Positions 27,793 to 51,239 of a stretch of DNA of 64,000 nt are shown one piece after another. Position 1 is the stretch's first letter, and each line of letters opens with the position of its first letter. Position numbers and translations under genes: made by a program. The notes under the pieces were generated by a model. The model had not been told where the DNA came from and ran no database searches. It saw only the letters and a list, made by a program, of their open reading frames with translations. The stretch is from an uncultured Methanosarcinales archaeon (GTDB taxonomy: Archaea; Nanobdellota; Nanobdellia; Woesearchaeales; CAXGTL01): contig CAZHVK010000002.1 in NCBI GenBank assembly GCA_964535955.1, positions 72,122-136,121 of the forward strand. Direction: 5' to 3'.

Positions 27793-27821
27793 GGGTGGGC
27801 GGCGGGGGAGGAGTATGTGGG
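27793..27821 (+). other. G-tract motif copy A (eno leader)
   Basis: GGGTGGGCGGCGGGGGAGGAGTATGTGGG in AT-rich DNA. Confidence 0.7.
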
Positions 27822-27852
27822 CTATTAATAATCACAAAAAAAGAGGCAAACC

Positions 27853-29103
27853 ATGAAAAAAATCACCAAAGTAATTGGTAGAGAAATTCTAGATTCTAGA
27901 GGCAATCCTACTGTTGAAGCAACTGTATTCTGTAAAAACAAATCAGCATCAGCAAAAGTGCCAAGCGGAGCTTCAACAGGTGATTATGAAGCAATTGAGT
28001 TAAGAGATCATAATAAAAAAAGGTATCATGGCAAAGGAACATTAACTGCTGTCAAAAATATAAACCTAATTGGTAAAAAATTAAAAGGATTTCATTTTGA
28101 TGAACAAACAAATATTGATAATTTTATGATATCATATGATTGCACAAAAAACAAATCAAGATTAGGTGCAAACTCGATTTTAGCAATAAGTTTAGCATGT
28201 GCAAAACTTAGATCATTAGTAGAAGGTAGACCATTATACTCATACTTTGGAAATCATAAAACATTACCTATTCCTTTCTTCAATATAATAAATGGCGGCA
28301 AACATGCTGATAACAAACTTAGTTTTCAAGAATTCATGATTGCTCCAATAAAAGCAAAAAACTTTTCACAAGCATTACAAATAGGAAGTGAAATATATCA
28401 CCAACTTAAGAAAGACCTTCATAAAAGATATAGCAAAGGTTCAACAAATATTGGTGATGAAGGAGGTTTTGCACCATACCAATTAAAAAGAACATACCAA
28501 CCTCTTAAAATGATTTGCAAAGCAATAGACGAGCTAGGTTATGAAAAAAAAGTAAAGATTGCAATTGATGCAGCTGCTTCAGAATTCTATCATCATAAGA
28601 TGTACAAAGTAGATGGCTGGTGGCTTAAACCATATAAATTAATAAAATTGTATGAACATTTGGTAGAACAATATCCAATAATATCAATCGAAGATCCATT
28701 TGATCAACAAGATTTCTTGAATTGGAAAGAAATGGTTGACGTATTAGGTAAAAAGATTCAGATTGTTGGTGATGATCTTCTTGTCACAAATGTAGACAGG
28801 ATTAAGTTTTCAAGAAGATATGACTTATGTAATGCACTTTTGCTTAAAGTAAACCAGATAGGTACACTGACAGAATCATTAGAAGCAGCAGAGCAAGCTA
28901 AAAAAGCAGATTGGAATATTATGGTATCACATCGTTCAGGTGAAACAACAGACACATTTATTGCAGACTTAGCAGTTGGCCTAGGCACAGGCCAGATCAA
29001 ATCAGGTGCTCCTTGCAGAGGAGAAAGGATTGCTAAGTATAATAGACTTCTTAAGATTGAGCAAGAGTTAGGTAAAAAGGGAAAGTTTGGTTTAAAACAT
29101 TAA
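27853..29103 (+). CDS. eno: Enolase
   Basis: EILDSRGNPTVE and SHRSGET motifs. Confidence 0.98.
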   Translation: MKKITKVIGREILDSRGNPTVEATVFCKNKSASAKVPSGASTGDYEAIELRDHNKKRYHGKGTLTAVKNINLIGKKLKGFHFDEQTNIDNFMISYDCTKNKSRLGANSILAISLACAKLRSLVEGRPLYSYFGNHKTLPIPFFNIINGGKHADNKLSFQEFMIAPIKAKNFSQALQIGSEIYHQLKKDLHKRYSKGSTNIGDEGGFAPYQLKRTYQPLKMICKAIDELGYEKKVKIAIDAAASEFYHHKMYKVDGWWLKPYKLIKLYEHLVEQYPIISIEDPFDQQDFLNWKEMVDVLGKKIQIVGDDLLVTNVDRIKFSRRYDLCNALLLKVNQIGTLTESLEAAEQAKKADWNIMVSHRSGETTDTFIADLAVGLGTGQIKSGAPCRGERIAKYNRLLKIEQELGKKGKFGLKH

Positions 29104-29167
29104 AAATTACAAAAAACAACAAAAAACCCTAAACATTTAAAAACACTAACCTCATTCTATATAGTAA

Positions 29168-30673
29168 ATGATAGATGAAGTAAAGAAGCCAGTAGTTTTA
29201 ATGATATTAGATGGTTTTGGACTTACATGGAAAAAGAAGGGAAACGCAATAAAACTAGCTAAAACACCAATTCTTGATAAACTTACCAAAACATGCCCAT
29301 ATGCTGTTCTAAAAGCTTCTGGAGAAGCAGTTGGATTACCAAAAGGTATCATGGGTAACTCAGAAGTAGGCCACCTTAATATAGGTGCTGGAAAAGTTGT
29401 TGAACAATATCTTATGAGAATCAATAATTCTATCAAAGATGGAAGTTTTTTTGAGATTCCAGATTTAATAGGAGCATTTGACAAAAATGAATATGTACAT
29501 TTAATGGGTTTAGTAAGTGATGGAGCTGTTCACAGTCACATTGACCATTTATTTGCACTCATAGATATGGCAAAAAAGTATAATTGTAAGATTTATGTTC
29601 ATGCATTCCTAGATGGTCGAGATACAAAACCAATGTGTGCTAAAAAATATATTAAAAAATTACAAAAAAAACTAAAAGGCATTGGTTCAATAGCTACTAT
29701 CTGTGGAAGATATTATGCAATGGACAGAGACAATAGATGGGACAGAACAAAAAAAGCATACAATACAATAGTAAATGCATCTGGTCTTTACAACAAAAAC
29801 ATAAATGATGTATTAAAACAGTCATATAAAAAAAAGATAGGTGATGAATTCATTGTTCCTTTAGTAACAAGTGATTATCATGGTATCAAAGAAAAAGATA
29901 CAATCATATTTTTTAATTATAGAGAAGATAGAGCTAGACAATTAACACAAGCATTTATTGATCCTAATTTCAAAGAATTCGAACGAAAATATAAAGAAGT
30001 AAATTTAATAGCATTCACACAGTATGACGATGATTTTAAGAACATGAAAGTTATATTTTCACCAATTTATCCAAAGAATACTCTTGGAGAAGTTTTAAGT
30101 AATAATGATTTAAGACAATTAAGAATAGCTGAAACAGAAAAATTTGCACATGTTACTTATTTTTTTAATGGTCTTAGAGAAACACCTCTTGAAAAAGAAC
30201 AAAGAATAATGATTCCTAGTCCAAAAATACCTACTTATGACCTTCAGCCTGAGATGAGTGCTGACGAAGTTTGCAACAATGTCCTAGAAAACTTAAAAAA
30301 TTATGATGTGTTAATAATCAATTTCGCAAATGGTGATATGGTTGGCCACACAGGTGTTTTAAAAGCAGCAATAAAAGCAGTTGAAAAAGTTGATGAATGT
30401 GTTGGAAAAATTATTGAAAAAGTCAAATCATTGAATGGAGTAGCACTTATAACAGCAGACCATGGAAATTGTGAACATATGATAGAAGGCTATAATGAAA
30501 CAGACACAGCCCACACAACAAACCCTGTATTTTTCATGATATTTAATCAAAATGTTAAGATTAGATCAAAAGGGGTTTTAGCTGATATTGCTCCAACAAT
30601 TCTAGATTTATTAAAGATTGAAAAACCTGATGAAATGACAGGAGAAAGTATGATTATTAAGTATTTATTGTAA
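29168..30673 (+). CDS. gpmI: 2,3-bisphosphoglycerate-independent phosphoglycerate mutase
   Basis: MGNSEVGH, GRYYAMDRD, DMVGHTG and ADHGN motifs. Confidence 0.97.
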   Translation: MIDEVKKPVVLMILDGFGLTWKKKGNAIKLAKTPILDKLTKTCPYAVLKASGEAVGLPKGIMGNSEVGHLNIGAGKVVEQYLMRINNSIKDGSFFEIPDLIGAFDKNEYVHLMGLVSDGAVHSHIDHLFALIDMAKKYNCKIYVHAFLDGRDTKPMCAKKYIKKLQKKLKGIGSIATICGRYYAMDRDNRWDRTKKAYNTIVNASGLYNKNINDVLKQSYKKKIGDEFIVPLVTSDYHGIKEKDTIIFFNYREDRARQLTQAFIDPNFKEFERKYKEVNLIAFTQYDDDFKNMKVIFSPIYPKNTLGEVLSNNDLRQLRIAETEKFAHVTYFFNGLRETPLEKEQRIMIPSPKIPTYDLQPEMSADEVCNNVLENLKNYDVLIINFANGDMVGHTGVLKAAIKAVEKVDECVGKIIEKVKSLNGVALITADHGNCEHMIEGYNETDTAHTTNPVFFMIFNQNVKIRSKGVLADIAPTILDLLKIEKPDEMTGESMIIKYLL

Positions 30674-30778
30674 ATTTCACTATATACAATTCTTAAATAA
30701 CATATATTATATATTCTAGTTTGGAAATGTTTATAAAGTTGGTTAACTTAAATTATTAAGTATAAATAAGAGAAAAGG

Positions 30779-31027
30779 GTGGAGAAAATATCTTTTACAT
30801 ATCATGCAGAACCAAATTATGACAAGAATGGGAAATATACTAATGAATATGTTCTAAAAAAATCAGGCACAGTTATAGGTGTTTATACAATAAAAAATAA
30901 AAAAGAGATAGATGGCCTAGGTATCAATGATGATGAAATATTAAAAGTATTAAAAGCATGTGTCAAAAAAAATCCACCAAAAAAACAAAAAAGGAGTCTA
31001 CTAGACATATTATTCAGGAGAAAATGA
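30779..31027 (+). CDS. Hypothetical protein
   Basis: 82-aa ORF with GTG start; stop overlaps the queH ATG. Confidence 0.55.
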   Translation: MEKISFTYHAEPNYDKNGKYTNEYVLKKSGTVIGVYTIKNKKEIDGLGINDDEILKVLKACVKKNPPKKQKRSLLDILFRRK

Positions 31028-31608
31028 AGAAACTTCTTTTACACACGTGTTGTGCACCTTGTGCTACACATGTAATTCAATTATTGAAAAAAGATTATGA
31101 AATAACACTCTATTTCTCAAACTCAAATATATATCCTAAACAAGAATATGAAAAAAGACTAGAAAATGCAAAAATAATTGCAAAACAAACACACACAGAA
31201 TTGATTAAAGACCCTTACAACCATAAACAATGGTTAGAATCAGTAAAAGGTTATGAACAAGAACCAGAAAAAGGCAAAAGATGTGAAATATGTTTCAAAC
31301 ACAATCTAGAAAAAACTGCACAATTTGCAAAACAAAACAATTACCAAATATTTGCAACAACTCTTACAATAAGCCCACACAAAGACAATATAATAATAAA
31401 CAAGATAGGAAAACAACTTGAAGAAGAATATAACAAAAAAGAAAACAATACAAACTCAAACAAAATACAATACCTAGAATCCAACTTCAAACAAAAAGAC
31501 GGTTTCAAACACAGCACAGAACTAAGCAAACAAATGAATCTTTATAGGCAAGGTTACTGTGGTTGTGAGTTTTCCTTCACCAACAACATAGCATCACCAA
31601 ATGAATAA
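31024..31608 (+). CDS. queH: Epoxyqueuosine reductase QueH (DUF208)
   Basis: LLLHTCCAPC, RC..CF, TTL.ISPHK and YRQ.YCGC motifs. Confidence 0.93.
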   Translation: MKKLLLHTCCAPCATHVIQLLKKDYEITLYFSNSNIYPKQEYEKRLENAKIIAKQTHTELIKDPYNHKQWLESVKGYEQEPEKGKRCEICFKHNLEKTAQFAKQNNYQIFATTLTISPHKDNIIINKIGKQLEEEYNKKENNTNSNKIQYLESNFKQKDGFKHSTELSKQMNLYRQGYCGCEFSFTNNIASPNE

Positions 31609-32576
31609 AATCTATATTTCTCCTTAACAGCAACATTATAAGCATCAAATATCCTATCCCTACCATAAAACCCACACACCAACAACAATAAAGACGATTT
31701 TGGTAAATGAAAATTAGTAATCATCATCTTGATAGGCATCTTAAACTTATAACCAGGATAAATAAACAAATCAGTTTTTCCACTACCTACTTTAACAAAA
31801 CCAGAGTCACTTGCAGCAGCTTCTAAAGTACGAACAGTAGTTGTACCACAACACACTAACCGACCTTTGCAATTATTAATAATCTTAGCAGCTTCTTCAG
31901 AAACTTCATAATATTCATTATGCATTTTATGCTGAACAAAGTCTTCTACTTTAATAGGTAAGAATGTTCCAAAACTTATATGAAGACAAATCTTAGCAAT
32001 TTTCACACCTTTCTTCCTTATCTTATCTAACAATTCTTTAGTAAAATGTAAAGAAGCAGTTGGTGCAGCAAATGAACCTTTTTGCTTAGCAAACACTGTT
32101 TGATAACGTGATTGTTTATCTACATGATTCTTAACATAAAAAGGGATTGGTAGTTCTGCTATTTGGTCTAGATCAAAATCTTTATTAAATTTTAGATTAC
32201 AGATATTTTCTTTTCTTGTTAAGATCTTTGCTTTTAGGCTATCTTTAAAATTAATAATATTGCCAACTTTAAGTCTTTTACCTCTTAATATACACTTATA
32301 AATATTATCATCTACATCATCTTTTAACTTTTCTTCAATAACTACCCAAACCTTTGTTCCTGTTACCTTTCTACCTACCAACATATTCTTTAGAACTTTT
32401 GTCTCATTTATAACAAGAACATCATCCTTATTTAGATAATTTATGAGGTTATAGAAGTGGCCGTGTTTAATTGTGTTGTTTTTCAAAACCATCAATCTAG
32501 AATTTTCTCTCTTAGAAATAGGTTCTTGCGCAATTAATTCTTTTGGGAGATTATAATCAAAGTCTGAGAGTTTCAT
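31554..32576 (-). CDS. queA: SAM:tRNA ribosyltransferase-isomerase QueA
   Basis: FDYNLPKELIAQ, YQTVFA..GS.AAPTA, TNFHLP.S and YRFYSFGDAM motifs. Confidence 0.96.
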   Translation of the reverse strand: MKLSDFDYNLPKELIAQEPISKRENSRLMVLKNNTIKHGHFYNLINYLNKDDVLVINETKVLKNMLVGRKVTGTKVWVVIEEKLKDDVDDNIYKCILRGKRLKVGNIINFKDSLKAKILTRKENICNLKFNKDFDLDQIAELPIPFYVKNHVDKQSRYQTVFAKQKGSFAAPTASLHFTKELLDKIRKKGVKIAKICLHISFGTFLPIKVEDFVQHKMHNEYYEVSEEAAKIINNCKGRLVCCGTTTVRTLEAAASDSGFVKVGSGKTDLFIYPGYKFKMPIKMMITNFHLPKSSLLLLVCGFYGRDRIFDAYNVAVKEKYRFYSFGDAMLLVKENSQPQ

Positions 32577-32578
32577 GC

Positions 32579-32761
32579 TCATTTCAATTTCTCAATCAAT
32601 TTCTCAACAAAATCTTCATATTTTTCCTCTGCAGCTAAAAAACCAACATCCATATTCAACAATTTTTCTGTTTCATTAACTTCTTCTAGATGCTTCTTAA
32701 GAACAAACGAAATCAGTTTTTTTTCATCATTTGTTAAATTCATTTTATTTCTCCCCAACAT
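32579..32761 (-). CDS. Small hypothetical protein
   Basis: Short ORF tightly packed in a minus-strand operon. Confidence 0.55.
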   Translation of the reverse strand: MLGRNKMNLTNDEKKLISFVLKKHLEEVNETEKLLNMDVGFLAAEEKYEDFVEKLIEKLK

Positions 32762-33875
32762 CGAATTTCTTAATCTCTAAATGATTCTTTTTAGCATGAA
32801 TAACTAAATCCATTTTATCATCAAATTCAGTCATGTCAGTAACAACTTCAGGCAACAATATTCTTTTCCCACGTAAATCTATATTGGTTATTAATTCTTT
32901 TTCACCCTTTTTAACAGCTGTAAAATCAATATCGTCAAGAATTTCTTTTGCACTTACCTTAGGCTTTTTACTTTCCTGAAACTCTTTTGTTTTTCTAAAC
33001 AAGAATCTTGCAATTTCATCTGCAACATTCACCCCTGTTGCTTTTGTAATTCCTTGTAAACTTGGTGACAAATTAAGTTCTATTACTAAAGGGCCCTTTA
33101 CACCTTCTAATATGTCCACACCACATATACCCATACCTAATGCTTTTGCAGCTTCAACAGCTATTTTACAAGTTTGATAATCTGCTGCAAATTTTTCTCC
33201 TGTTCCACCTGCATGAACATTTGATCTTTTCTCTCCTTTAACAGCTTTTCTTTTCATAGAAGCAACAACTTTATCACCAACAACAAATGCTCTTAGGTCA
33301 CAACCTTCAGTTTCAATATATTCCTGAATCAAAAATGGTTGTTTTAATGCTGATAATGTATCAAGCATAGAAGTTGCAGAAGGTAATGAATCAGCAAACA
33401 TCACACCTTTACCATGTGTGCCACTTGGCAATTTCATAATAATTGGATAATTAATTTTTTCTAAAGTTTTTCTTGCAGCTTCTGGTGTTGCAGTTAAATA
33501 AGTTTTAGGAGTAGGAATATTAAATCTATGAAGATCAAGATGTGTCAAGACCTTATCATGACCAACTGTAAAAGCAAAAGGTGATAATGGTAGATAAGTA
33601 TGTTTATTAAGAACAGAAGTAATTGCTCTTAGCAGATTATTATATCTAAATGAACCTTTTGCATATATACAATCATATTTGCTCATTGGTTCACCATTAT
33701 GAAGAATAGGATTATCATCACCAATATTAACCTCGATTTGTTTAATATTTAGATGATCTACATCTTCAAAATATTCTTTCATAGCATCTGCAGTCCATTT
33801 TGATGATTTTGAACCAAGACTTATAACAGCAGCTTTGAATTGTTTTTTATGTTTAGCCATATATCTTTTCACCAA
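32745..33875 (-). CDS. RimK-family ATP-grasp ligase with C-terminal AbrB-like extension
   Basis: G.HGKGV, QEYI, RSNVHAGG, GVDIL and ELN.SP motifs. Confidence 0.9.
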   Translation of the reverse strand: MVKRYMAKHKKQFKAAVISLGSKSSKWTADAMKEYFEDVDHLNIKQIEVNIGDDNPILHNGEPMSKYDCIYAKGSFRYNNLLRAITSVLNKHTYLPLSPFAFTVGHDKVLTHLDLHRFNIPTPKTYLTATPEAARKTLEKINYPIIMKLPSGTHGKGVMFADSLPSATSMLDTLSALKQPFLIQEYIETEGCDLRAFVVGDKVVASMKRKAVKGEKRSNVHAGGTGEKFAADYQTCKIAVEAAKALGMGICGVDILEGVKGPLVIELNLSPSLQGITKATGVNVADEIARFLFRKTKEFQESKKPKVSAKEILDDIDFTAVKKGEKELITNIDLRGKRILLPEVVTDMTEFDDKMDLVIHAKKNHLEIKKFDVGEK

Positions 33876-33881
33876 ATTTAT

Positions 33882-34310
33882 TTATTTTTGTTGTTTATAT
33901 TTTTTGTTTATATTATAATTAGGATCAATAACAAAGTTTTGTTTTAATATATTTCTACCAATCAAAACTTTATACCTTAGCTTTGTCCTATCAGCCAAAT
34001 TAAACAATGTTTTGAACTTCCTATCACCAATCTTTAAAGCAACTTTTATCAAAGGCCTTTCTGATAAACCTTCAGCAGATCTAACCCTTTTAGTTTTAAT
34101 AATTGGGCCAAGTTTTAGTTCAGCTGCTAATTTGACATCTATTGAATTTTTTGCAGCACCAGTATCAATTCTAGCCATAAGCTCTTTTTTCTTATTAGGT
34201 CCATAAATTACTACTTTTTCTGTAAACCCAACTACAGATTTCCTTTTAACAAGTTTCTTTGTTTTTCCTTTTCTGATTGTCCTGATAGTTTTTCTAATCT
34301 TTTTACTCAT
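33882..34310 (-). CDS. RimK-associated putative aspartic protease
   Basis: ARIDTGA, L.DR..L.Y.VLIGR motifs. Confidence 0.85.
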   Translation of the reverse strand: MSKKIRKTIRTIRKGKTKKLVKRKSVVGFTEKVVIYGPNKKKELMARIDTGAAKNSIDVKLAAELKLGPIIKTKRVRSAEGLSERPLIKVALKIGDRKFKTLFNLADRTKLRYKVLIGRNILKQNFVIDPNYNINKKYKQQK

Positions 34311-34373
34311 ATTAATAATAGAAAAAATAGCTATTTATAAGTTTTTCGTAAGTCTATATATAATAGCTCTAAA

Positions 34374-35876
34374 TCACTTCTTTTTTCCTTTTTCAGGCTT
34401 ATCAGACTTTTCAGGCCTCATAGTAGGAAACGGAATAACTTCCCGAATAGAGTCAGCACCTGTTAATAAGATAATCATTCTATCCACACCAAAACCTAAA
34501 CCACCTGCAGGAGGCATCCCTATTTCAATTGCTTGCAAAAAATCTTCATCCATAGGATGTGCTTCTTCATCTCCAGCTCTGCCTAATTCAGCTTGTTTTT
34601 CTAATAATTCTCTTTGTAGTAATGGATCATTTAGCTCAGAATAACCATTACCTATTTCCCAGCCATTTATGTAGAACTCAGTTCTTTCAACTAAATGAGG
34701 ATCATACTTAGTTGGTTTACAAAGTGGAGTGCTTTCAATCGGATGATCAAGTATATGGATTGGTTGTATTAACTTATCTTCAACTAATTCTTCAAAAATA
34801 AGTGACATTGCAACTCCTTTACTAAAGTCACCTTCATACTCAATATTATATCCTTTCATAACATTCTTTATTTCAGTATCACTTAATTTATTAATATCAA
34901 TTTTAGCATATTTTTTAACAGCATCAGCCATTTTCATCTTTTTCCAAGGCCTTTTTAGATCAATACTGGTTTTCCCATGCTTTACTTTGGTTGTTCCATT
35001 AACCTTAAGAGCAACATACTCCCAAAGTTCTTCTGTTAATTCCATAATCATTTCTCTATCAGCATATGCCCAATAATATTCTATCATATAAAATTCAGGA
35101 TTATGAGTTTTATCAACACCTTCGTTTCTAAAATTATAGTTCATATCATATATTTTTTCAAAACCACCAACCATTAATCTTTTCAAAAATATTTCTGGAG
35201 AAATTTTCAAATACATTGGCATATTCCATGCATTAATATTTGTTACAAATGGTCTTGCATTTGCTCCACCATATATTGTCTGAAGAATTGGTGTGCTCAT
35301 TTCAATAAAAGCTTTCTTATCCATAAATTCCCTTATGTGTTTTAGGACCTTAGCTCTCTTAATAATTATATCTTTCACTCCAGGATTCATGATTAAATCC
35401 AGCTCCCTATGCCTAAACCTAATATCATCATCTTTCAAACCATGAAACTTTTCAGGTAAAGGTCTAAGAGATTTACACAACAATTCATATTTTTTAACAT
35501 CAATAGTTAATTCTCCAGTTCTTGTTTTAAATATTAAGCCTTTAATCCCAACAATATCCCCCATATCTAATTTTTTTAAAAGTTTATATTTTTCTTTTCC
35601 AACATTATCTTGAGCAAAATAAACCTGAATCCTTCCTGATTGGTCCTGAATCTGCATAAAAGTAACTTTTCCCATTCGGCGCAACAACATTATTCTTCCT
35701 GCAACAGAAACCTTTGTTTTTGTTTTTTCTTCCTTTTTTAATTTGCTAAACTTTTCTTGTAATTCAAGAGCATTATGTTTTTTATCAAATTTATAAGGAT
35801 AAGCAACAATCCCTTTTTCTCTTATTTCATTCAATTTTCTTATTCTTTCTTGCATTAATTGATCTTCTGGTTTCAT
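34374..35876 (-). CDS. lysS: Lysyl-tRNA synthetase, class II
   Basis: OB-fold, GGANARPF, FRNEG...HNPEF and GMPP..G.G.G.DR motifs. Confidence 0.97.
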   Translation of the reverse strand: MKPEDQLMQERIRKLNEIREKGIVAYPYKFDKKHNALELQEKFSKLKKEEKTKTKVSVAGRIMLLRRMGKVTFMQIQDQSGRIQVYFAQDNVGKEKYKLLKKLDMGDIVGIKGLIFKTRTGELTIDVKKYELLCKSLRPLPEKFHGLKDDDIRFRHRELDLIMNPGVKDIIIKRAKVLKHIREFMDKKAFIEMSTPILQTIYGGANARPFVTNINAWNMPMYLKISPEIFLKRLMVGGFEKIYDMNYNFRNEGVDKTHNPEFYMIEYYWAYADREMIMELTEELWEYVALKVNGTTKVKHGKTSIDLKRPWKKMKMADAVKKYAKIDINKLSDTEIKNVMKGYNIEYEGDFSKGVAMSLIFEELVEDKLIQPIHILDHPIESTPLCKPTKYDPHLVERTEFYINGWEIGNGYSELNDPLLQRELLEKQAELGRAGDEEAHPMDEDFLQAIEIGMPPAGGLGFGVDRMIILLTGADSIREVIPFPTMRPEKSDKPEKGKKK

Positions 35877-35908
35877 ATTATACCACCTATAATATTTTTA
35901 CATAATAT

Positions 35909-37324: not shown

Positions 37325-38398
37325 CTAAACATCCAATAATTTATCATCAACATAGATCTTTGGATTTTTAAAAACCTGATCATAATGATTAAGTGCATAT
37401 ATTGTTCCACCAAACCAAGCATTTGAACCAATTGCTACATGCGCAGTACCAAGTGTTTTTTCATCAACAATAGTAATTCCTACAATATTTGCTTTAGGAT
37501 TAATTCCAATACCAAGTTCACCAATTCGTTTCACACCCCAAGAATACTTTGATTTCAATAAAACATGGTTAAGACTTTGTTCAAGAAGCCTAGCTTCTTT
37601 AAAACCAGTAATATTAACAACCTCATCATTTTCAATTGTTAATGTTACAGGATGTTTAGTTAAAAAAGTACCTTGATGGGTTCTTATTGATCCATCTACA
37701 ACAACTTTACCATATATCTTTTTTTTAGACCTTGGAGGAATATAAACTTCACCAGCAGGCATGTTTCCACCAGTTCCAGGCAATAAATAATGTCCATCAT
37801 TAGATACAGCCATTTTTCCTTTTATATTATAATACAAATCAGTGCCTTTTTTTGTAGTAATATGAACCATACTTCCATTATCAAGAATTTTTTTAATTCT
37901 TTGACCATTGTCTCTTAATTTACGATAATCAATATCCATTGAATCAACAATATGTGTTAAAAACTTAGTATCTAAACTGTCTAAGTTTGAAATCGAAGTA
38001 AACCTATGATTAGCTTTTTTTGCAAATGACCTAAAACTTTTCCCAAGAACACCAAGGCCACTTAATTTGCCAGATAAATTTATTGTGATAACACTTTCTT
38101 GCTTAAGATCAGCCAAGCTTTTTACCAAAGCTTCACTATTTCCTCCTAATGGCTGAGAATTCCTAATATGTAACTTAGGCTTAAGATTTAATTCCTTAGC
38201 AGCTAAATAATAACCCATTGTAAATATGGGTGATATTCTTTTATCTTTTGTCCCTAAATCACCTATAATAAGAAACTCTTCATTCTTAACACCTAAACAT
38301 TGTCTTAGTATATTCTTAAAACAATCCTTATAATGTTTAGAAATATCTAAAAACCCATTACTCTTCATCCAATTAATAAACTGTTTTTCATCCATCAA
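37325..38398 (-). CDS. M29-type aminopeptidase
   Basis: NMPAGEVY, IGELGIG.N, DEK..GT.H.A.G and H.D motifs. Confidence 0.88.
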   Translation of the reverse strand: MMDEKQFINWMKSNGFLDISKHYKDCFKNILRQCLGVKNEEFLIIGDLGTKDKRISPIFTMGYYLAAKELNLKPKLHIRNSQPLGGNSEALVKSLADLKQESVITINLSGKLSGLGVLGKSFRSFAKKANHRFTSISNLDSLDTKFLTHIVDSMDIDYRKLRDNGQRIKKILDNGSMVHITTKKGTDLYYNIKGKMAVSNDGHYLLPGTGGNMPAGEVYIPPRSKKKIYGKVVVDGSIRTHQGTFLTKHPVTLTIENDEVVNITGFKEARLLEQSLNHVLLKSKYSWGVKRIGELGIGINPKANIVGITIVDEKTLGTAHVAIGSNAWFGGTIYALNHYDQVFKNPKIYVDDKLLDV

Positions 38399-38499
38399 AA
38401 TAAAGAAATAGAGAATTCCTATTTATAGGTTTTGGAAAAAACAAGAAAAAATACAAAAAAATATACACCAACCAAAATAATCATCACCTGACAAAACAA

Positions 38500-38530
38500 G
38501 GGTGGGAGGTTGGGGGAATTGGATGGTGGG
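38500..38530. other. G-tract motif copy B (C-rich on the minus strand)
   Basis: GGGTGGGAGGTTGGGGGAATTGGATGGTGGG. Confidence 0.7.
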
Positions 38531-38547
38531 AAAACAAAATAAAATAA

Positions 38548-38700
38548 TCAAGAACTCATAAATCCAACTAAGAATCCATGCTCCATTGGAGATATTTCAT
38601 CATTATCCATTCCAAAGTCCAATCCATCTTCATCATAAATATCACCATCAGGCATTTCCATATCAATTATTTTTATCACAACTTTTTGTTCAAATCTCAT
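38548..38700 (-). CDS. Small acidic protein, 50 aa (not in ORF track)
   Basis: MRFEQKVVIKIIDMEMPDGDIYDEDGLDFGMDNDEISPMEHGFLVGFMSS; strong SD GAGGTGA upstream. Confidence 0.75.
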   Translation of the reverse strand: MRFEQKVVIKIIDMEMPDGDIYDEDGLDFGMDNDEISPMEHGFLVGFMSS

Positions 38701-38739: not shown

Positions 38740-38790
38740 TGTCAGAAATGTTCCATTTCTGATCATGCTCAAAAACTAGTGTTTTTGACA
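38740..38790 (-). repeat. Double-hairpin element copy 1
   Basis: + strand: TGTCAGAAATG-TTC-CATTTCTGA-TCATGC-TCAAAAAC-TAGT-GTTTTTGACA. Confidence 0.85.
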
Positions 38791-38903
38791 AACCCATTTA
38801 CATCAAAAACAGATCTTTGAGTAATCATCATTATCTGTTGCTGAAATAAGAGTTCAATTGTCTCATGGCTTATATCATTTGGTTGGATATTATTTTCTTT
38901 CAT
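38769..38903 (-). CDS. Small protein, 44 aa (not in ORF track)
   Basis: MKENNIQPNDISHETIELLFQQQIMMITQRSVFDVNGFVKNTSF; SD AAGGTGA upstream. Confidence 0.55.
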   Translation of the reverse strand: MKENNIQPNDISHETIELLFQQQIMMITQRSVFDVNGFVKNTSF

Positions 38904-38960
38904 TTCTATCACCTTTTAAGATTTTTTTAAATTATTCAGTTTACAAACTAGATAATTATA

Positions 38961-39012: not shown

Positions 39013-39124
39013 AAAATAATATAGGCAAAGCATTAGGTATAGGGGTGAAGGTGCTTTGCCGAATCAAAAAAAACAAGTTATAGTATACTTACAGTATCTA
39101 TGCTTTATAAGCTTCACACACACA

Positions 39125-39219
39125 TGTCCAGTGACCACTGAGAATGAGAATAGAGCCTATACCTTCTGAAATCAAGCATTTAAGGTCAGTGGACACCCTT
39201 TTTTCAGATGTCCACTGAC
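39125..39219. promoter_or_regulatory. Putative operator array (TGTCCASTGA motifs)
   Basis: TGTCCAGTGACCACTGA at 39125; perfect 11-bp inverted repeat GTCAGTGGACA/TGTCCACTGAC at 39185-39219; next to a TATA-like box at 39104. Confidence 0.55.
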
Positions 39220-39322
39220 AAACTATTAATTATATTTTTTCATATATAAAAAATAATCACAATTAGATATTTTTGCATAAATTATGCTATGATTTTTAAA
39301 TTCATTAAGCTTTCTTTAGTAT

Positions 39323-43349: not shown

Positions 43350-43393
43350 ATAAATTTATTTTTTATTTTTTTTAAATTATTTTTTAAAAAACT

Positions 43394-44104: not shown

Positions 44105-44298
44105 AAACCTGTGTAAATAAAGACACAAACATGGATAGATGTAATTGTTCTTATGAAGGTTGTGAAAGAAAAGGCATATGTTGTGAATGCATAGCTTATC
44201 ACAAGAGAAGAGGAGAATTACCAGCTTGTGTGTTTCCTGATCATATAGAAAAAACTTATGATAGAAGTTTTAGGAAGTTTGTTGAGGTAAATAAGTAA
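44101..44298 (+). CDS. Small Cys-rich protein (DUF6485-like)
   Basis: C.CSY..C..KG.CC.C..YH...ELPAC.F...EKTYDRS. Confidence 0.7.
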
Positions 44299-44676
44299 AT
44301 GGTATATCAAAATCAACCATATACAATAAATCCTAGTGAACCACTTAGAGAAGTATTTGAAAATTCCCCAGAATACAGATTCATAGAACAACTAAAAAAA
44401 ATAAAAGAGAGTGGCAATATATGCGGAGCAGACAGTATATTAAAGACAATGACAGATACAAAACATCTAGACAAGCACAGATTATGCGACCTCATGGAAA
44501 GAGAAAAAGGAGTGCAGATTTTTGTTGACGAAGGAATGGGAAAATACTGCAGCATGGGTGCACAAAGAGCATACACACAATTATTTGAATTTTACAAAAC
44601 ATTGACTAAACAGACACAAAAAAGAATGCAAGCAAACTTGAATGAAATGAGAGGAAAAGCTCATTTTACAGAATAA
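44299..44676 (+). CDS. Hypothetical protein
   Basis: 125-aa ORF abutting the previous gene. Confidence 0.6.
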   Translation: MVYQNQPYTINPSEPLREVFENSPEYRFIEQLKKIKESGNICGADSILKTMTDTKHLDKHRLCDLMEREKGVQIFVDEGMGKYCSMGAQRAYTQLFEFYKTLTKQTQKRMQANLNEMRGKAHFTE

Positions 44677-44682
44677 GTCTGG

Positions 44683-45321
44683 TTAATAAGTAGGTGGAAT
44701 CTGTATTGCTGACAAAAGATCTTGCATAATATTCATATTTGATTTTAACATATACATTAAAACAAAAAAGAATACAATATATAGTATTATAATTACTAAA
44801 ACAGGAATCAGATACATTAATATTGCTTTTAATCTAGACACACTATGAACTTTTTGTGTACCAATTATCAACAATACTAAACCATAGATCCATACAAAAC
44901 TACCTAAAAAAGGTATCCAACCAAGAATAAGGCTTGGTGTTCTTGTGTAAACAAATAATTGATAAGTTTTAGTATAATCTCCTTTACCACCAAATATCAA
45001 TACCCATACATGAAGTATTCCTGCTAACAAAAAACTCAAACCTAATCCCAAAATATAACCAAAAAAACCCCAAAGAATCATTGAACCAAAAGCAACCTGT
45101 GGCTGAGGTATATTAAATCCTATTAATTCTGATATTACCTTAAGAAAATAAGGTTGAAATGCTAAACCCACAATAAAACCTAAAATAGTACCAAACAAAG
45201 ATAAAATCATATAATAAATAAAAGCATCTTTCATACCTTCTTCTTTATCTAGATTTGAAAAAAAATTAGCAGGTCCTACAAAGACATTCTTTATTTTATT
45301 GACTATATCATTTAAATCCAT
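44683..45321 (-). CDS. Yip1-family membrane protein
   Basis: P..FF, H.....FGGKG.Y..T....Y...P and five TM segments; start at 45321 preferred. Confidence 0.82.
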   Translation of the reverse strand: MDLNDIVNKIKNVFVGPANFFSNLDKEEGMKDAFIYYMILSLFGTILGFIVGLAFQPYFLKVISELIGFNIPQPQVAFGSMILWGFFGYILGLGLSFLLAGILHVWVLIFGGKGDYTKTYQLFVYTRTPSLILGWIPFLGSFVWIYGLVLLIIGTQKVHSVSRLKAILMYLIPVLVIIILYIVFFFVLMYMLKSNMNIMQDLLSAIQIPPTY

Positions 45322-45444
45322 ATATAACAATAAAAGAAAAACCATTATATAAATGTAACTAAAATTCCAACTAGTAAAATAACTAGATAAAACATCATAC
45401 ATATAGAAACATATATATATTGATAATACATAAAACAAAACCAT

Positions 45445-46173
45445 ATGGAAAAAATAAGTATAGACATAAAAAATGTAACAACTTCATACAAAAAATTCAA
45501 GATAAAAAGAATATCTTTCAATCTCAAAAATGGAGACATATTAGGGTTAATAGGCAGATCAGGTTCTGGTAAATCAACAATAATTAAAACAATATTGGGT
45601 CTCAAAAAGCAAGATTCAGGAAAAATAAAAACATCCTTGAATGATGAGGAGATTTCCATAAAAAAATTAATAGGATATTCTCCTCAAGAAAATTCTCTAT
45701 ACCCTTTTCTTACAGTAGAAGAAAATATAATGACATTTGGAAAATTACATGGTATAAAAAAAGATATAATAAAGCAAAGGATGAATTCCATTCTAAAAAG
45801 ACTTGATCTTAATTATAGTAAAAAAAAAAAGATAAGCCAACTTTCTGGGGGAATGCAGAAAAGAGCAGATTTAGCAGTAACACTAATTAGTTCACCAAAG
45901 ATTATAATCCTTGATGAACCATTTACAGGTTTGGACATATCATTACAGAAGTTTATATGGGAATTACTCAAAGAATTAAGGAATGAAGGAAATATAATCA
46001 TTATTTCCAGCCATATGCTTCATGAGATACAAAACAATTGTAATCATTTTGGTCTTGTTGAACAAGGATATTATTATAACACTGATCAGATAATTCAAAC
46101 TCTAAAAACATCTAAAAAAAGTCTTGAACACTTTTTAGAAAAATTATTTACAAGAGATTTAAATTCAGGATGA
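45445..46173 (+). CDS. ABC transporter ATP-binding protein
   Basis: GRSGSGKS, LSGGMQKR, LDEP and SSH motifs. Confidence 0.95.
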   Translation: MEKISIDIKNVTTSYKKFKIKRISFNLKNGDILGLIGRSGSGKSTIIKTILGLKKQDSGKIKTSLNDEEISIKKLIGYSPQENSLYPFLTVEENIMTFGKLHGIKKDIIKQRMNSILKRLDLNYSKKKKISQLSGGMQKRADLAVTLISSPKIIILDEPFTGLDISLQKFIWELLKELRNEGNIIIISSHMLHEIQNNCNHFGLVEQGYYYNTDQIIQTLKTSKKSLEHFLEKLFTRDLNSG

Positions 46174-46176
46174 AAA

Positions 46177-47850
46177 ATGTTTAAAACAATTCAATTAATA
46201 AAAGCAAATCTTAAACGTTTTATTAGAGATTGGAAAGCAATCTCATTACTAATTGTATTTCCATTGATTTTAATAGGTGTTGTTTTTGTTTCATTTAACC
46301 CAAGTGGTTTAAGAAAAGTGCCAGTAGGAATTATAAGTGTATCAGAACAAGGATCAGAGGTTGGTATTCAAGATTATGAACACCATCTTTCTTATTTGAA
46401 TCTAAAAAGATTTTCTACACTAAATGAGTGCTTAAATGATTTAAAAAGATATAATTCATATGTATGTATAGAAATAGAAGAATTAACATACAAAGACGAA
46501 GGTGTGATGCTTAAAGTACATTATGATAACACAAGAGAACCAATTATATGGGAGATTATTGAAAGAATTAAATCAACCATAGAATATTTTCAAAAACAAA
46601 TATCAAAAGAAATGGCTACTGACTTTATCACTGTTTTAGATAATACAGGAAACAGGATAGATGATTTTAAAATAAACCTAAGATCAACACACGGAAAAAT
46701 AGATGATTACATTGATGAAACAGACAAATCAGAAAAAAGACTTAGCAGTGCAAAAAAAGATGTAGAATATTCTTTAGACAATATGGACAGAGACCTCTCT
46801 GACATAGAATATACAAATAACAGAATTAAGAATGAAAAAGAAAGATTACATTCAGAGAGCTTTAGTCGTTTATATAAACCAGATGCTAGTGTTGATGAAA
46901 TAATACTTAGAAATCAAATAGAATATTTTAATGATAGATCTGGCAATATGTTTGCAGAAGTTGATGAAAAAATAAAAAGATACAAAGAACTAAGCAAACA
47001 AGGTAGATCACATATTAGTGAAATAGATTTAGGATTAGTAAAATTAAGGCAAGTAAAAAGAGATTTGGATTATTATAAATCAAGATTAAAAGAAACAGAC
47101 AATGAGCTTGGAAGCATTCAACAAAATTTTAAAAGTTTTAGAAATCTAGATCCTGAAACTTTTGTTAACCCAATCGTTATAAACAATTATCCTGTATTTG
47201 TTCCCAACCAAAAAAATAAAGAAAAAGAAGTAATTGAAACATTCAACTTAATGAGTCTAAAAACAATATTTCCAATGATCTTATTATTGATCACTTTATT
47301 TATTTCATTATTAATATCAAGTTTCATGTGTTTAAAAGATATTAATTCACCTGCAAACAAAAGAATTAGATTGATTAAGGGGGTATTTTTCCCAGAAGTG
47401 TTTGCTGTCTATATTTCATCCTTAATAATAATTTTAGTTCCTATATTATGTGTTCTTGCACTTGGAGACTTTGTTTTTAAGATTGCCATATTCTACCATA
47501 TTAATACAGTTGCATTGATTATGTTTCTGCTTATAAGCAGCTTTATATTAATAGGCATGCTGCTTGCTTATCTTGTTAAAAAAGAATCTGTAACTTTATT
47601 AGTTACCACATTTTTATTGGTTTTCTTTATATTTATTTCAGGATTCTTATTACCTATTGAAAGAATGAGTCATTATGCAGCCATAATTGCAAACCATTTT
47701 CCAGGAAAGATAGCATTATCAGCATTTAATAAAGTTGTTTTCTACAATGCTTCACTAAAAACAATAAATAATGATATAATTTCATTAATAGTTTGGATTG
47801 TATTTATTCTTAGCTTTGTTATTTTGTTTAAATGGCTAAGAAATGACTAA
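46177..47850 (+). CDS. ABC-2 type permease with large coiled-coil ectodomain
   Basis: N-terminal TM, long coiled coil, C-terminal TM block with SG..LP.E.M. Confidence 0.85.
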   Translation: MFKTIQLIKANLKRFIRDWKAISLLIVFPLILIGVVFVSFNPSGLRKVPVGIISVSEQGSEVGIQDYEHHLSYLNLKRFSTLNECLNDLKRYNSYVCIEIEELTYKDEGVMLKVHYDNTREPIIWEIIERIKSTIEYFQKQISKEMATDFITVLDNTGNRIDDFKINLRSTHGKIDDYIDETDKSEKRLSSAKKDVEYSLDNMDRDLSDIEYTNNRIKNEKERLHSESFSRLYKPDASVDEIILRNQIEYFNDRSGNMFAEVDEKIKRYKELSKQGRSHISEIDLGLVKLRQVKRDLDYYKSRLKETDNELGSIQQNFKSFRNLDPETFVNPIVINNYPVFVPNQKNKEKEVIETFNLMSLKTIFPMILLLITLFISLLISSFMCLKDINSPANKRIRLIKGVFFPEVFAVYISSLIIILVPILCVLALGDFVFKIAIFYHINTVALIMFLLISSFILIGMLLAYLVKKESVTLLVTTFLLVFFIFISGFLLPIERMSHYAAIIANHFPGKIALSAFNKVVFYNASLKTINNDIISLIVWIVFILSFVILFKWLRND

Positions 47851-47931
47851 GAAGGAGAATTCTTTATATTGTCAATAACAGAAATCCTTATAAACTAATT
47901 TCCTCCTCTAAAGTTAAAATGGTGATAGATT

Positions 47932-49212
47932 ATGAAACTACCTAAAGACTTAACAAAAGATGAGAGAGAAGAAACAACAATAGTTGGAATGGAATTTCCA
48001 GAAAAAAGACATACTATTTCTGAGCTAACAAAAGATGAAAAAATCAGTGAAAAAAAAATAGAAAAACAATTTGCAAAACTAGCAAAGGAATCAACAAAAA
48101 CACACAAAAAGCAAGAAATAAAACTAGGAACCAAAAAGAGAAAAATCAAAATAAATAGAACAATCACACCAATTATAATCATGCTTATTATAATTTCATT
48201 GATTTACTTTTTAGGAGCATTTGATAATAAAGTATCAATAACAGTTATCAAAAACAAAGAATGTGATTTTTGTACAAATGTAAATCCTATTATAAAATCA
48301 ATAAATGAATCAGAAAACATAAAAATAATAGAATTTGAAGAATTAGATTACAGAGAAGATAAAGCAAAAGAGATTATAGAAAAAATACAAATAAGAACAA
48401 CTCCAACAATCATAATTCAAGGTAATGTGTTTACAAAAACATCTTTTTTTAAAAATCTATCATCAGAGAACATTAAAAAACATGGTGAAAAATTTGTATT
48501 AAGCAGTTTTCTTCCACCATTAACAGAAATCATGACAAATCAAATATTAGGCATAGTCAATGTTATATACCTTAAAGATGAAAGCTGTATAGAATGTGCT
48601 GATTTAGATCACGCAATACAAAAATTAAAAAATGCAGGAGTCTATGTCAGCAACATCAAGGAAGTTGAAATAAATAGTGAACAAGGTCAAAAATTAAAAC
48701 ACAAGTATAATATAAAAAAAGTTCCCATACTTCTTTTTGATCAAAACTTGGGATTATACCAGCATATAAGTAAACAATGGAATTTATATGGTTCTATAGA
48801 AGATGATGGAATAATGATTATGAGAAAAACATTACCACCATACAAAAATCTTGAAACAAATAAAATCAAAGGTATTATCAAAGTAACATACTTAACAGAC
48901 AAGACATGCACAGAATGTTATGATCCAAGTATACATAAAAAAGCAATATCAAGAATAATGCCTTATTATAAACAAGAAGAAACAATTGACATTTCACAAA
49001 TAAAAGCCCAAGAATTAATTGTAAGATATAATATAAATGATGTGCCTACAATAATCTTATCAAAAGATATTAATGAATATCCTTTGTTTGAAACATTATT
49101 CAGTAATGTCTATGAAAAACAAACAGATGAAAGTTATGTATTCAAATCAAATCCTAAATTTAAAGATCAGATATATAAAGATTTAAAATCTAATAAAATA
49201 ATAAAGAATTAA
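47932..49212 (+). CDS. Membrane-anchored protein with three thioredoxin-like CxxC repeats
   Basis: CDFC, CIEC and CTEC, each followed by an I..TP/VP.I cis-Pro-like motif. Confidence 0.75.
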   Translation: MKLPKDLTKDEREETTIVGMEFPEKRHTISELTKDEKISEKKIEKQFAKLAKESTKTHKKQEIKLGTKKRKIKINRTITPIIIMLIIISLIYFLGAFDNKVSITVIKNKECDFCTNVNPIIKSINESENIKIIEFEELDYREDKAKEIIEKIQIRTTPTIIIQGNVFTKTSFFKNLSSENIKKHGEKFVLSSFLPPLTEIMTNQILGIVNVIYLKDESCIECADLDHAIQKLKNAGVYVSNIKEVEINSEQGQKLKHKYNIKKVPILLFDQNLGLYQHISKQWNLYGSIEDDGIMIMRKTLPPYKNLETNKIKGIIKVTYLTDKTCTECYDPSIHKKAISRIMPYYKQEETIDISQIKAQELIVRYNINDVPTIILSKDINEYPLFETLFSNVYEKQTDESYVFKSNPKFKDQIYKDLKSNKIIKN

Positions 49213-49230
49213 AAACCAAACAAAAACAAA

Positions 49231-49443
49231 ATGTGTTTATCAATACCAGGCAAAATCATAGAAATAAAACAAGACAACAAAGTAGTAATCGACTATGTCA
49301 GAGAAAAAACAATTGCAGACAATTCTTTAACAAATGCAAAGATAGGTGATTATGTTATTATCAAGTCAAAGTTTGTTATATCAACAGTAGACCAAGACCA
49401 AGCAGAAAAAACAATAAAAGAGTGGAAAGAAAATGACTCCTGA
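49231..49443 (+). CDS. hypC: Hydrogenase maturation chaperone HypC
   Basis: MCLSIPGKI...GDYV. Confidence 0.9.
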   Translation: MCLSIPGKIIEIKQDNKVVIDYVREKTIADNSLTNAKIGDYVIIKSKFVISTVDQDQAEKTIKEWKENDS

Positions 49444-49927
49444 AAAAATATTCCTAAGATATGCTTTTCCTTGCTTAGACACATTATGTTATGAACTAGG
49501 TAAAGTTGATGAAAATATTGTAAAGGATATTAAAGACAAAGTAAAATCAAACACAGATGTTGAAAAAAAAGATCTAGAAAATTTGTTTCCAGCTGCTATT
49601 GCAAGAATAAAAGACTTAGCTATAGAAAAGAATAGAACAGAGTATTGGACAGTTGAAAACATAAGAGATTATTTTATCCACCACCATAACATGATTATTG
49701 ATAATGGAAAAGGAAGTTATGCAATTCTAAGACCAGAGACAAAGTATTGGTGTAAAACAAGAAAAGCAAAAATAAAGAAAATAGATGGTAAACTTATTGA
49801 ACTTATTTATGAAGACCATGATCCAAGATTTGATACAACTAGAAAATTCTATAATCTTTACAATTTAGATTTAAATGAACAAGATATTGTAACAACACAT
49901 TATAGGTTTATCATTGAAAAACTATGA
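49433..49927 (+). CDS. Hypothetical protein linked to hypC (DUF6390-like)
   Basis: FLRYAFPC, HHN, C and C-terminal V..H; overlaps hypC. Confidence 0.55.
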   Translation: MTPEKIFLRYAFPCLDTLCYELGKVDENIVKDIKDKVKSNTDVEKKDLENLFPAAIARIKDLAIEKNRTEYWTVENIRDYFIHHHNMIIDNGKGSYAILRPETKYWCKTRKAKIKKIDGKLIELIYEDHDPRFDTTRKFYNLYNLDLNEQDIVTTHYRFIIEKL

Positions 49928-50007
49928 TTCTCAGTAATCTTTATATATATATAAAAGAAAATAATTATTATTAGTAAATAAATCAGAACTTAGTCCTTAC
50001 CAGCCAA

Positions 50008-50037
50008 GGGTGGGTGGTGGGGATGTGGGTCAGGTGG
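50008..50037 (+). other. G-tract motif copy C (hydrogenase operon leader)
   Basis: GGGTGGGTGGTGGGGATGTGGGTCAGGTGG; canonical four-tract G4 pattern with loops 1, 4 and 4. Confidence 0.7.
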
Positions 50038-50057
50038 AATTAAAAAAAGAGGCCAAA

Positions 50058-50969
50058 ATGCTAAACAACATACAAACATTCTTTTCTGTATTGGTTTTAA
50101 TATTTTCTATTGGAATGTTCTTAACAGTATTTAAAGAAAAAAAAGGATTGATTGATTTGTTTATTGCAACAGTCTTAAGCTTAGTCTTAATCAATCTTAA
50201 TTTTTGGTATTTAACAGGACTTGGTATAACATTAATATTATATCCCTTGATAAACCAAAAAATGGCTCATAATGATATAGTAACATATTCTATGACAGGA
50301 AGTATATTAACATCTTATTTTGTGTTGATATTGTACCAAACATATACTCTTCCTTTATTAAAGATAATAATTGCATTCACATTAATCATAATGTGTTTAT
50401 TAAGTGTGTTAGGTATATTTGAAAAAAATATCAAAAAGTTTTTTATTTATTCAAACCTAATCCAATTCTTATTTGTATTGCTTGATCTAAGCATTGCAAA
50501 ATTAACAGGTAAAATAGGTGCATTAGGAATTATACAAATATTTAATTATACAATTGCAGGAAGTTTATTCTTTTTAACATTATTGATTTTAAATAAAGAT
50601 AAAGTAAACCTGTTTAGTGAAATACAAGGACATTATTATAAAGATCATACTACTGGAATTTTAGCAATAATTGCATGCGTTTCATTAGCAGGTCTGCCTG
50701 GATTAAATATATTTGTAAGTGAATGGTTATTATTTGTCAAAGCATTTACAATTGATCCTGCAATCACAATAATAGGAATATTCATTGCATTGTTATTATT
50801 TATTATGTATTTTAAAGTAATTTATATTCTAATTTCAAAATATCAAACACAAAAATCAAAAACAAATAAAATATCCAGATCTTATGCAATTATTTTAGGT
50901 ATACTTTGTTTATTATTTGGAATATTATTCAACTTACAATTTTATATACTTAACTGGGTATTGCAATGA
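50058..50969 (+). CDS. Antiporter-like (Mrp/NuoLMN/HyfF-type) membrane subunit, short
   Basis: IKKFFIYS and SLAGLPGLNIFVSEW motifs; ATG at 50058 after SD AGAGG. Confidence 0.8.
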   Translation: MLNNIQTFFSVLVLIFSIGMFLTVFKEKKGLIDLFIATVLSLVLINLNFWYLTGLGITLILYPLINQKMAHNDIVTYSMTGSILTSYFVLILYQTYTLPLLKIIIAFTLIIMCLLSVLGIFEKNIKKFFIYSNLIQFLFVLLDLSIAKLTGKIGALGIIQIFNYTIAGSLFFLTLLILNKDKVNLFSEIQGHYYKDHTTGILAIIACVSLAGLPGLNIFVSEWLLFVKAFTIDPAITIIGIFIALLLFIMYFKVIYILISKYQTQKSKTNKISRSYAIILGILCLLFGILFNLQFYILNWVLQ

Positions 50970-50970
50970 T

Positions 50971-51023
50971 TAGAAATCTTCGATTTATAATCAACGAACG
51001 AAACGGAGTGGAGTGATATTGAT
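50971..51023 (+). mobile_element. Candidate 53-bp structured insertion with TGAT duplication
   Basis: TGAT at 50967-50970 and 51020-51023; two hairpins; removal restores ATG ATA GGA AAA. Confidence 0.45.
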
Positions 51024-51168
51024 AGGAAAAAAATCAGTTTATATAGGCGGAGAAAAAGACACACAAGACATAATTATTCCTAAGTATTATGAAGATTTTT
51101 TTAAAGAATCTTTGTTATTTTTTGTAACTGGATTAATATGTTTGTTATTGATATTGTTATTTGTTTAA
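51019..51168 (+). CDS. Small membrane subunit of the hydrogenase complex (NuoA/MbhI-like fragment; not in ORF track)
   Basis: MIGKKSVYIGGEK...YYEDFF followed by one TM helix; K..Y.GGE motif. Confidence 0.6.
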   Translation: MIGKKSVYIGGEKDTQDIIIPKYYEDFFKESLLFFVTGLICLLLILLFV

Positions 51169-51206
51169 ACAGATTCTATGCCCTAGATAGCCTTCCTGAC
51201 TCAACA

Positions 51207-51239
51207 GGGGAGGGTGGTCGGGAGGATGGAACAGGTGGG
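51207..51239 (+). other. G-tract motif copy D (small-subunit leader)
   Basis: GGGGAGGGTGGTCGGGAGGATGGAACAGGTGGG directly before the ATG. Confidence 0.65.

Follow-up and report, generated by a model that had tools for sequence, protein, structure and literature searches.

A recurrent G-rich element ahead of the enolase and hydrogenase genes of an AT-rich archaeon, with the features of a possible leader RNA

The window analysed here is a 64,000-nucleotide (nt) stretch of contig CAZHVK010000002.1 from an uncultured archaeon, with 28% GC and only 13.9% G. Its archaeal genes include those for aIF2-alpha, PAC2, PTH2, aIF5A and the ribosomal proteins S8e, L44e and S24e. Two energy-metabolism loci concern us most, the enolase gene and a hydrogenase cluster. 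In the latter, the small-subunit gene is followed by NuoC-, NuoD-, NuoH- and NuoI-like genes, the nickel-site motifs CGIC and DPCFGC are present in the large subunit, and the cluster is flanked by hypC and a HycI-like protease; judged from these motifs and neighbours, it is a group-4 [NiFe]-hydrogenase. A short G-rich element occurs in four copies in this window: copy A ahead of enolase, copies C and D in the hydrogenase cluster, and copy B between two minus-strand genes (Table 1). A first-pass annotation, made by a model from the letters, had placed G-rich islands with four tracts of at least three Gs at 27793, 38500, 50008 and 51207. All four sequences are there exactly as it quoted them, on the + strand and between genes, and every island has its four tracts.

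Such islands are rare in DNA of this composition. At least 18 Gs in a sliding 30 nt are reached at islands A-D only, and the same count across the whole window found no C-rich mirror of this kind on the opposite strand. The G4Hunter scan that the first-pass annotation had proposed, run on the window (window size 25, score at least 1.5), flags exactly four regions, which are islands A-D, with scores of 1.80-1.92 (the highest in copy C). In 200 first-order Markov simulations, the mean was 0.245 such regions and the maximum 3. The heptamer GGGTGGG occurs 3 times where 0.54 occurrences are expected.

Each island is part of a core of about 50 nt with a constant order. A pyrimidine arm (consensus near YCYTKAY) is followed by 4-6 variable bases, a GGGWGGG block and a second arm, NGG(Y)YGGG, with the last G tract 4-14 nt further on. 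When the four copies are aligned with a fifth from a close relative, here called L001, 16 of the 52 columns are invariant. An nhmmer profile of the four copies matches only those four in the window, and only L001 among 80 loci fetched from other genomes. With filters switched off, a covariance model scores the four copies at 46-53 bits, and the next best site in the window at 8.7 bits. It found no further copies in the window or in loci L001-L005 and L007 beyond A-D and the L001 enolase copy (L006 was covered by the nhmmer profile and left out of this search). The 'shared element' of the first-pass annotation is thus one family and not a coincidence. The copies within the window are 46-65% identical to each other, against 79% for copy A and its L001 ortholog, indicating that they are old rather than recent duplicates.

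At the gathering threshold, Rfam 15 matches only a tRNA-Leu in the window, leaving the elements without a family, and a permissive scan at E-values up to 10 gave nothing overlapping the G-rich cores. We also found no description of a comparable leader family in the full-text literature searched, the coverage of which was limited. The element is real, non-random and locally conserved, and has no match in Rfam or in the literature searched.

Several other candidates were dropped along the way. L002 has a weak covariance-model match (E = 0.89), but within an open reading frame (ORF) of the minus strand, and a C-rich site after enolase in L001 turned out to be the neighbouring promoter rather than a copy. 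A conserved upstream ORF was also considered, with an ATG in the distal G-rich part of four of the five copies. In L001, however, the codon is ATT, and the copies differ in frame, in length and in spacing to a Shine-Dalgarno (SD) sequence (0-3 nt in three copies). Copy D also contains an internal 12-nt tandem (GGGAGGGTGG at 51208-51217 and GGGAGGATGG at 51220-51229), a hint that short duplications may have enlarged the family's G-rich part.

Relatives were gathered by one genome scan anchored on enolase, from which the 80 loci were fetched. L001 was the only close relative returned (86% enolase protein identity, 30% GC); beyond it came six archaeal loci from metagenome-assembled genomes at 53-57% identity, and the remainder were bacteria. 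Conservation in the enolase leader, which the first-pass annotation had suggested checking, is seen in L001, where the copy is kept at the same position. Its 5' half is nearly unchanged, in contrast to the diverged spacer immediately before it. The pyrimidine arm differs at two positions, each time by a T/C exchange that leaves pairing with G intact, and an A·C mismatch in copy A corresponds to an A-U pair in L001. Neither nhmmer nor the covariance model found a copy in the more distant archaeal loci, so the family is narrow.

To place the copies relative to transcripts, we considered the promoters around them. Most genes of the window appear leaderless (for example those at 2731, 26947, 29168, 57520 and 60875): their TATA box (consensus TTTATAAACA) ends 19-24 nt short of the ATG. 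A minority have a GAGGTG-type SD. Using a TATA matrix built from these leaderless genes with a cut-off of 6 bits, the hydrogenase operon has a canonical box upstream of copy C; with the same 19-24 nt spacing, transcription is predicted to start near 49971, giving an 87-nt leader that contains copy C. No + strand box of at least 6 bits was found at copy A (27700-27853), at its L001 ortholog or at copy B (38400-38560), and the islands themselves have no TATA match. Copies A, B and C are preceded by an AAAATAA-like box, which was tried as the element's own promoter but scores below 6 bits and was rejected. Copy A, its L001 ortholog and copy D all lie in spacers between same-strand genes. Given the missing TATA box, enolase is probably co-transcribed with the PAC2-family gene before it, which would make copy A intercistronic like copy D.

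The first-pass annotation had named enolase and the hydrogenase membrane and small subunits as the downstream genes, and these calls are right. Its reading of the islands as leaders on energy genes holds for A, C and D (three of four) and fails for B. It was also right that A and C share a 12-mer followed by the ATG: AAAAAAAGAGGC lies at 27836-27847 and 50042-50053, and holds a GAGG 5-6 nt before each ATG. The count of this 12-mer is not significant alone (3 matches with at most one mismatch, 1.93 expected). In copy D, the last G tract of the element itself, AGGTGGG (51233-51239), occupies the expected SD position of the small-subunit gene. In the same window, the element is absent from the S-layer gene, four ribosomal-protein genes and the aIF5A gene, which argues that it is not a leader common to highly expressed genes. 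Beside enolase, the phosphoglycerate mutase gene lacks the element and is served by a leaderless promoter of its own.

Within the element, the pyrimidine arm can form an 11-bp, G·U-rich helix with the block after GGGWGGG, which it encloses. RNAalifold returns this hand-derived helix (columns 4-14 with 27-37) together with two inner pairs. In the consensus helix 83.6% of cells are paired; shifting the partner columns by 1-3 lowers this to 44-60%. In the five sequences, the same set from which the helix was derived, both sides change at 4 of the 11 pairs, and the covariation score is 0.436, a value that 7 of 500 shuffles attain. The consensus helix is also the minimum-energy fold in four of the five copies, including copy C (-19.8 kcal/mol, z = -3.2 against dinucleotide shuffles). 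Predicted folds of the complementary strand are weak, at -2.8 to -10.3 kcal/mol, and the helix forms on the + strand only. The first-pass annotation had paired an upstream pyrimidine tract with the first G runs. Pairing of that arm with the G-rich part stands, but its best partner is the third G block (GGYYGGG).

The same tracts could also form a quadruplex. Four tracts of at least G3 are present in all five copies, with the first loop fixed at 1 nt and the third ranging from 4 to 14 nt. Canonical loops of 1-7 nt throughout are possible in copy C only; A and B need up to 12 nt, D needs 14 nt, and the L001 copy (G4Hunter score 1.76) has one loop of 11 nt. The quadruplex option of ViennaRNA gave mixed results, resting on two-layer quadruplexes. 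As the predicted helix uses G tracts 2-3, hairpin and four-tract quadruplex are mutually exclusive, in line with the alternative folds that the first-pass annotation had envisaged. The invariant GG and the pyrimidine arm are explained by the predicted helix, and the GGGWGGG loop and the retained distal tract by a quadruplex or a bound factor. We regard the helix itself as plausible and modestly supported.

Copy B has no + strand gene 3' of it and is antisense to both its neighbours; with B in this orientation, gene sense does not dictate the element's direction in every case. Synteny with L001 extends across the site and the flanks are well conserved, but an 86-nt stretch containing copy B is missing there. 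This difference could be either an insertion in the window genome or a deletion in L001. No inverted repeats were found at the 86-nt stretch; the junction is spanned only by an imperfect direct repeat, rich in A/T (38467-38495 and 38534-38562; 29 nt, 72%). A phage or plasmid origin was rejected after blastn of the stretch, which gave no match in phage or plasmid collections. Beyond the 50-amino-acid ORF next to copy B lies a 47-amino-acid minus-strand ORF (38769-38912), also with a GGTGAT-type SD and with its DNA conserved in L001.

Table 1. Copies of the G-rich element, their predicted parts and the adjoining genes and signals (positions in the window unless marked L001; aa, amino acids).
Feature	Position	Strand	Details
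Copy A core	27776..27823	+	46 bits; in 111-nt spacer from PAC2-family gene (26947-27741) to enolase
Copy A helix arms	27777-27787 and 27800-27810	+	predicted pairing
Copy A G tracts	starts at 27793, 27797, 27804, 27819	+	
Enolase gene	27853-29103	+	ATG at 27853
Enolase GAGG SD core	27843..27846	+	within AAAAAAAGAGGC, 6 nt before ATG
Copy A ortholog in L001	L001 9927-9976		upstream of enolase, same position; 56.5 bits
Copy B core	38483..38531	+	53.4 bits, highest of the four window copies
Copy B helix arms	38484-38494 and 38507-38517	+	3 of 11 pairs broken
M29-like peptidase gene, neighbour of B	37325-38398	-	
50-aa acidic ORF, neighbour of B	38548-38700	-	GGTGAT-type SD; DNA conserved in L001; no Pfam match
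Stretch with copy B missing in L001	38460..38545		86 nt; syntenic spacer, junction near L001 20335
Canonical TATA box of hydrogenase operon	49940..49949	+	TTTATATATA, 9.4 bits; 58 nt upstream of first G of copy C
Copy C core	49991..50038	+	51.4 bits; predicted 5' leader of membrane-subunit gene
Copy C helix arms	49992-50002 and 50015-50025	+	predicted pairing
Membrane-subunit GAGG SD core	50049..50052	+	5 nt before ATG at 50058
Antiporter-like membrane subunit gene of hydrogenase	ATG at 50058	+	
Weak TATA-like box near copy D	51162-51171	+	6.3 bits
Copy D core	51189..51240	+	49.4 bits; in 73-nt spacer from 51-aa membrane ORF (51013-51168) to small-subunit gene
Copy D helix arms	51192-51202 and 51215-51225	+	predicted pairing
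NuoB-like hydrogenase small-subunit gene	51242-51679	+	copy D abuts its ATG

Taken as a whole, the element is probably a new RNA signal for gene expression. The specific form that we favour, though tentatively, is a lineage-specific cis-acting RNA element in the leaders and intercistronic spacers of enolase and the hydrogenase operon, which would affect translation or stability, with copy B as an orphan. The element would be transcribed within the sense RNA ahead of enolase and twice in the group-4 [NiFe]-hydrogenase operon, with A and D presumably lying within longer transcripts, as their same-strand neighbours suggest. In that RNA, the 5' pyrimidine arm may form its 11-bp helix with GG(Y)YGGG, or the same G tracts may instead form a quadruplex. 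Either structure would sit 0-21 nt upstream of the ribosome-binding site, which is the weak GAGG in A and C and probably the element's own last tract in D. It might then act post-transcriptionally as a bulky or ribosome-attracting leader structure, raising or tuning translation of the downstream cistron. Alternatively, it might protect the 5' end of that cistron after a longer transcript is processed. Copy B would be an orphan or decaying copy without a downstream gene.

Known systems offer partial parallels for such a role. Bacterial STAB-SD leader stabilisers and ribosome standby sites place a strong SD-like sequence upstream of a weaker real SD. The islands are similar in this respect, being the strongest predicted matches locally to an inferred anti-SD string (-10 to -11 kcal/mol), whereas the actual SDs of enolase and the membrane subunit reach only -5.8 kcal/mol with the same string. 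They differ from these systems in having a conserved partner arm and a four-tract pattern, and any ribosome binding or stabilisation by them is putative. In another system, an RNA quadruplex in the 5' untranslated region is reported to have raised translation, both in vitro and in E. coli, with a stronger effect when a hairpin preceded it (PMC11087576). Our element resembles these enhancers in its quadruplex-capable block and hairpin segment on the sense strand, upstream of the ribosome-binding site. Unlike the engineered enhancers, which are synthetic and bacterial, it belongs to an archaeal host, its hairpin and quadruplex share tracts, and it is known from sequence alone.

Several observations weigh against a leader RNA. 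Folding beats dinucleotide shuffles in only one of the five copies, the others giving z = -0.8, -1.2, +0.3 and +0.2. The five sequences include two orthologous ones, and the helix was derived from these same sequences. Alternative pairings with the distal tract or with the true SD exist, and since any pyrimidine tract pairs with any G tract, the register is weakly constrained. The anti-SD string was taken from SD sites in the window and not from this organism's 16S rRNA, and the probable co-transcription of enolase and the PAC2-family gene has the missing TATA match as its sole basis. The comparison with relatives reaches copies A and B only, not C or D. Finally, copy B has the top score of the four window copies, yet it runs antisense to its neighbours, lacks a TATA box on the + strand and is missing from L001. 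A leader RNA leaves both the existence of copy B and its four kept G tracts unexplained.

Copy B would be easier to understand if the element were a short dispersed DNA repeat, similar to REP or MITE sequences, which spreads or decays and whose position before genes is incidental or co-opted, with no dedicated regulatory role. We consider this unlikely, although it has several points in its favour. The module is present at unrelated loci, its four window copies share one strand, and copy B is a clean 86-nt presence/absence difference in a conserved spacer, antisense to its neighbours. Like REP/BIME and MITE-like repeats, it is a short intergenic module, often between same-strand genes, with one presence/absence polymorphism. 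Unlike them, it has no palindrome or terminal inverted repeat. None was found at any copy, those near C and D lying in A/T-rich flanks outside the cores, and the helix needs G·U pairs, meaning that it is not a palindrome at the DNA level. The copies are diverged rather than near-identical, only four were seen in 64 kb, and a scan of 63 window ORFs revealed no transposase domain. Imperfect A/T-rich direct repeats flank A (76%, 21 nt) as well as B, but these are low-complexity and of a type often due to chance. The lack of phage or plasmid matches for the B stretch, the fixed position before start codons, and the retention and conservation of the enolase copy in L001 also argue against a repeat of this kind.

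Less likely again is a signal at the DNA level, either a G-quadruplex on the non-template strand or a protein site near promoters. This would act on transcription of enolase and the hydrogenase operon, and at copy B it would act on the minus-strand neighbours, for instance as a template-strand block or an insulator. In its favour, four tracts of at least G3 with a 1-nt first loop are kept in all five copies despite the variable third loop, with G4Hunter scores of 1.76-1.92. Copy B makes sense only if the element works outside a sense transcript, and its antisense placement and indel are the chief evidence both for this reading and for a dispersed repeat. However, a quadruplex needs neither the conserved pyrimidine arm nor the invariant GG in the second loop, and the T/C exchanges, which leave pairing with G intact, speak for RNA. 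Copy C lies about 37 nt downstream of its predicted start, off the promoter, and copy D lies within the operon. As a protein site, 45 nt of asymmetric sequence is unlike typical archaeal regulator sites. Non-template quadruplexes are reported to have enhanced transcription in earlier work (PMC11087576), which we count in favour of a DNA-level signal. A survey of archaeal putative quadruplexes reported genome-wide densities and an enrichment in non-coding RNA genes (PMC7565180). Our islands qualify under that survey's G4Hunter settings (window 25, score at least 1.2), while its accessible text does not describe a recurrent leader family of the present kind.

The first-pass annotation had gone further and proposed a cation-sensitive riboswitch, in which a hairpin and a quadruplex alternate to coordinate lower glycolysis with H2 metabolism. 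Hairpin and quadruplex do share G tracts and exclude each other, three of the four copies precede enolase or hydrogenase cistrons, and other highly expressed genes of the window have no element. Still, we find this model improbable. Its regulon would be two transcription units in 64 kb, the neighbouring phosphoglycerate mutase gene has no copy, and copy B has no target gene. Loop lengths are canonical in copy C only, no Rfam match appeared at E-values up to 10, and dependence on a ligand or ion cannot be inferred from sequence. Equally speculative is a broader version, a natural archaeal RNA switch in which cations, temperature or a factor would make a 50-nt module toggle between G·U-rich hairpin and G-quadruplex. 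Such a module would set the translation of enolase and the membrane-bound hydrogenase in a small, mostly leaderless archaeon, and could be copied to new loci, as at 38500.

A strand-polar DNA motif for replication or recombination, like Chi or KOPS, is very improbable. In its favour, all four copies lie on the + strand, polar motifs are G/T-rich, as is the element, and copy D contains GGGGAGGG. Such motifs, however, are short oligomers scattered through genes, whereas the element is a 50-nt module with a conserved pyrimidine arm, found only between genes. Four copies would all fall on one strand by chance with a probability of 0.125, and the GC skew of the window shows no single trend but tracks the orientation of the genes.

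Other features of the window deserve a brief mention. A candidate small RNA of about 72 nt lies at 39125-39195 (+), with a counterpart at 20786-20856 in L001; its ends are conserved and its apical part is variable. It has a long terminal stem (GTCCAGTGACC with GGTCAGTGGAC) and lies downstream of a canonical TATA-like box (39102-39111), with a run of Ts beyond 39200. No Rfam overlap was found for this candidate, the nearest weak match being IS128 at 39178-39266 (E = 1.5). In a gene-free stretch at 39024-39060 (+) and 20681-20717 in L001, there is a near-identical 10-bp hairpin with a 17-nt G-rich loop. Pairing of the elements with these two candidates was tried and rejected, as the predicted energies (-25 to -34 kcal/mol) did not reach those of the best unrelated tiles (-36 to -41 kcal/mol).

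Among the clearly archaeal genes lie a gene for QueH (epoxyqueuosine reductase; 30958-31608, +) and a QueA-like queuosine gene (31554-32582, -). Such genes are usually bacterial, and horizontal acquisition is possible. A free-standing gene with a LAGLIDADG domain (7507-8505, +) is found between the ribosomal protein L1 gene and an ORF of no assigned function. An ORF of 1259 amino acids (13018-16797, +) has no Pfam match at E-values up to 1e-5. The assembly contains a gap of 100 N at 5536-5635, inside the ORF region 5467-6609.

We know of almost no regulatory RNA in uncultivated AT-rich archaea. The element is short and sharply defined, and even if it were merely a dispersed repeat, it would still serve as a lineage marker, though of modest interest. 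If it is indeed a structured leader that recurs on two units of core energy metabolism, it would offer a rare handle on post-transcriptional control in such archaea. And if hairpin and quadruplex do alternate in it, this would be a natural prokaryotic case of a principle shown mainly with engineered constructs.

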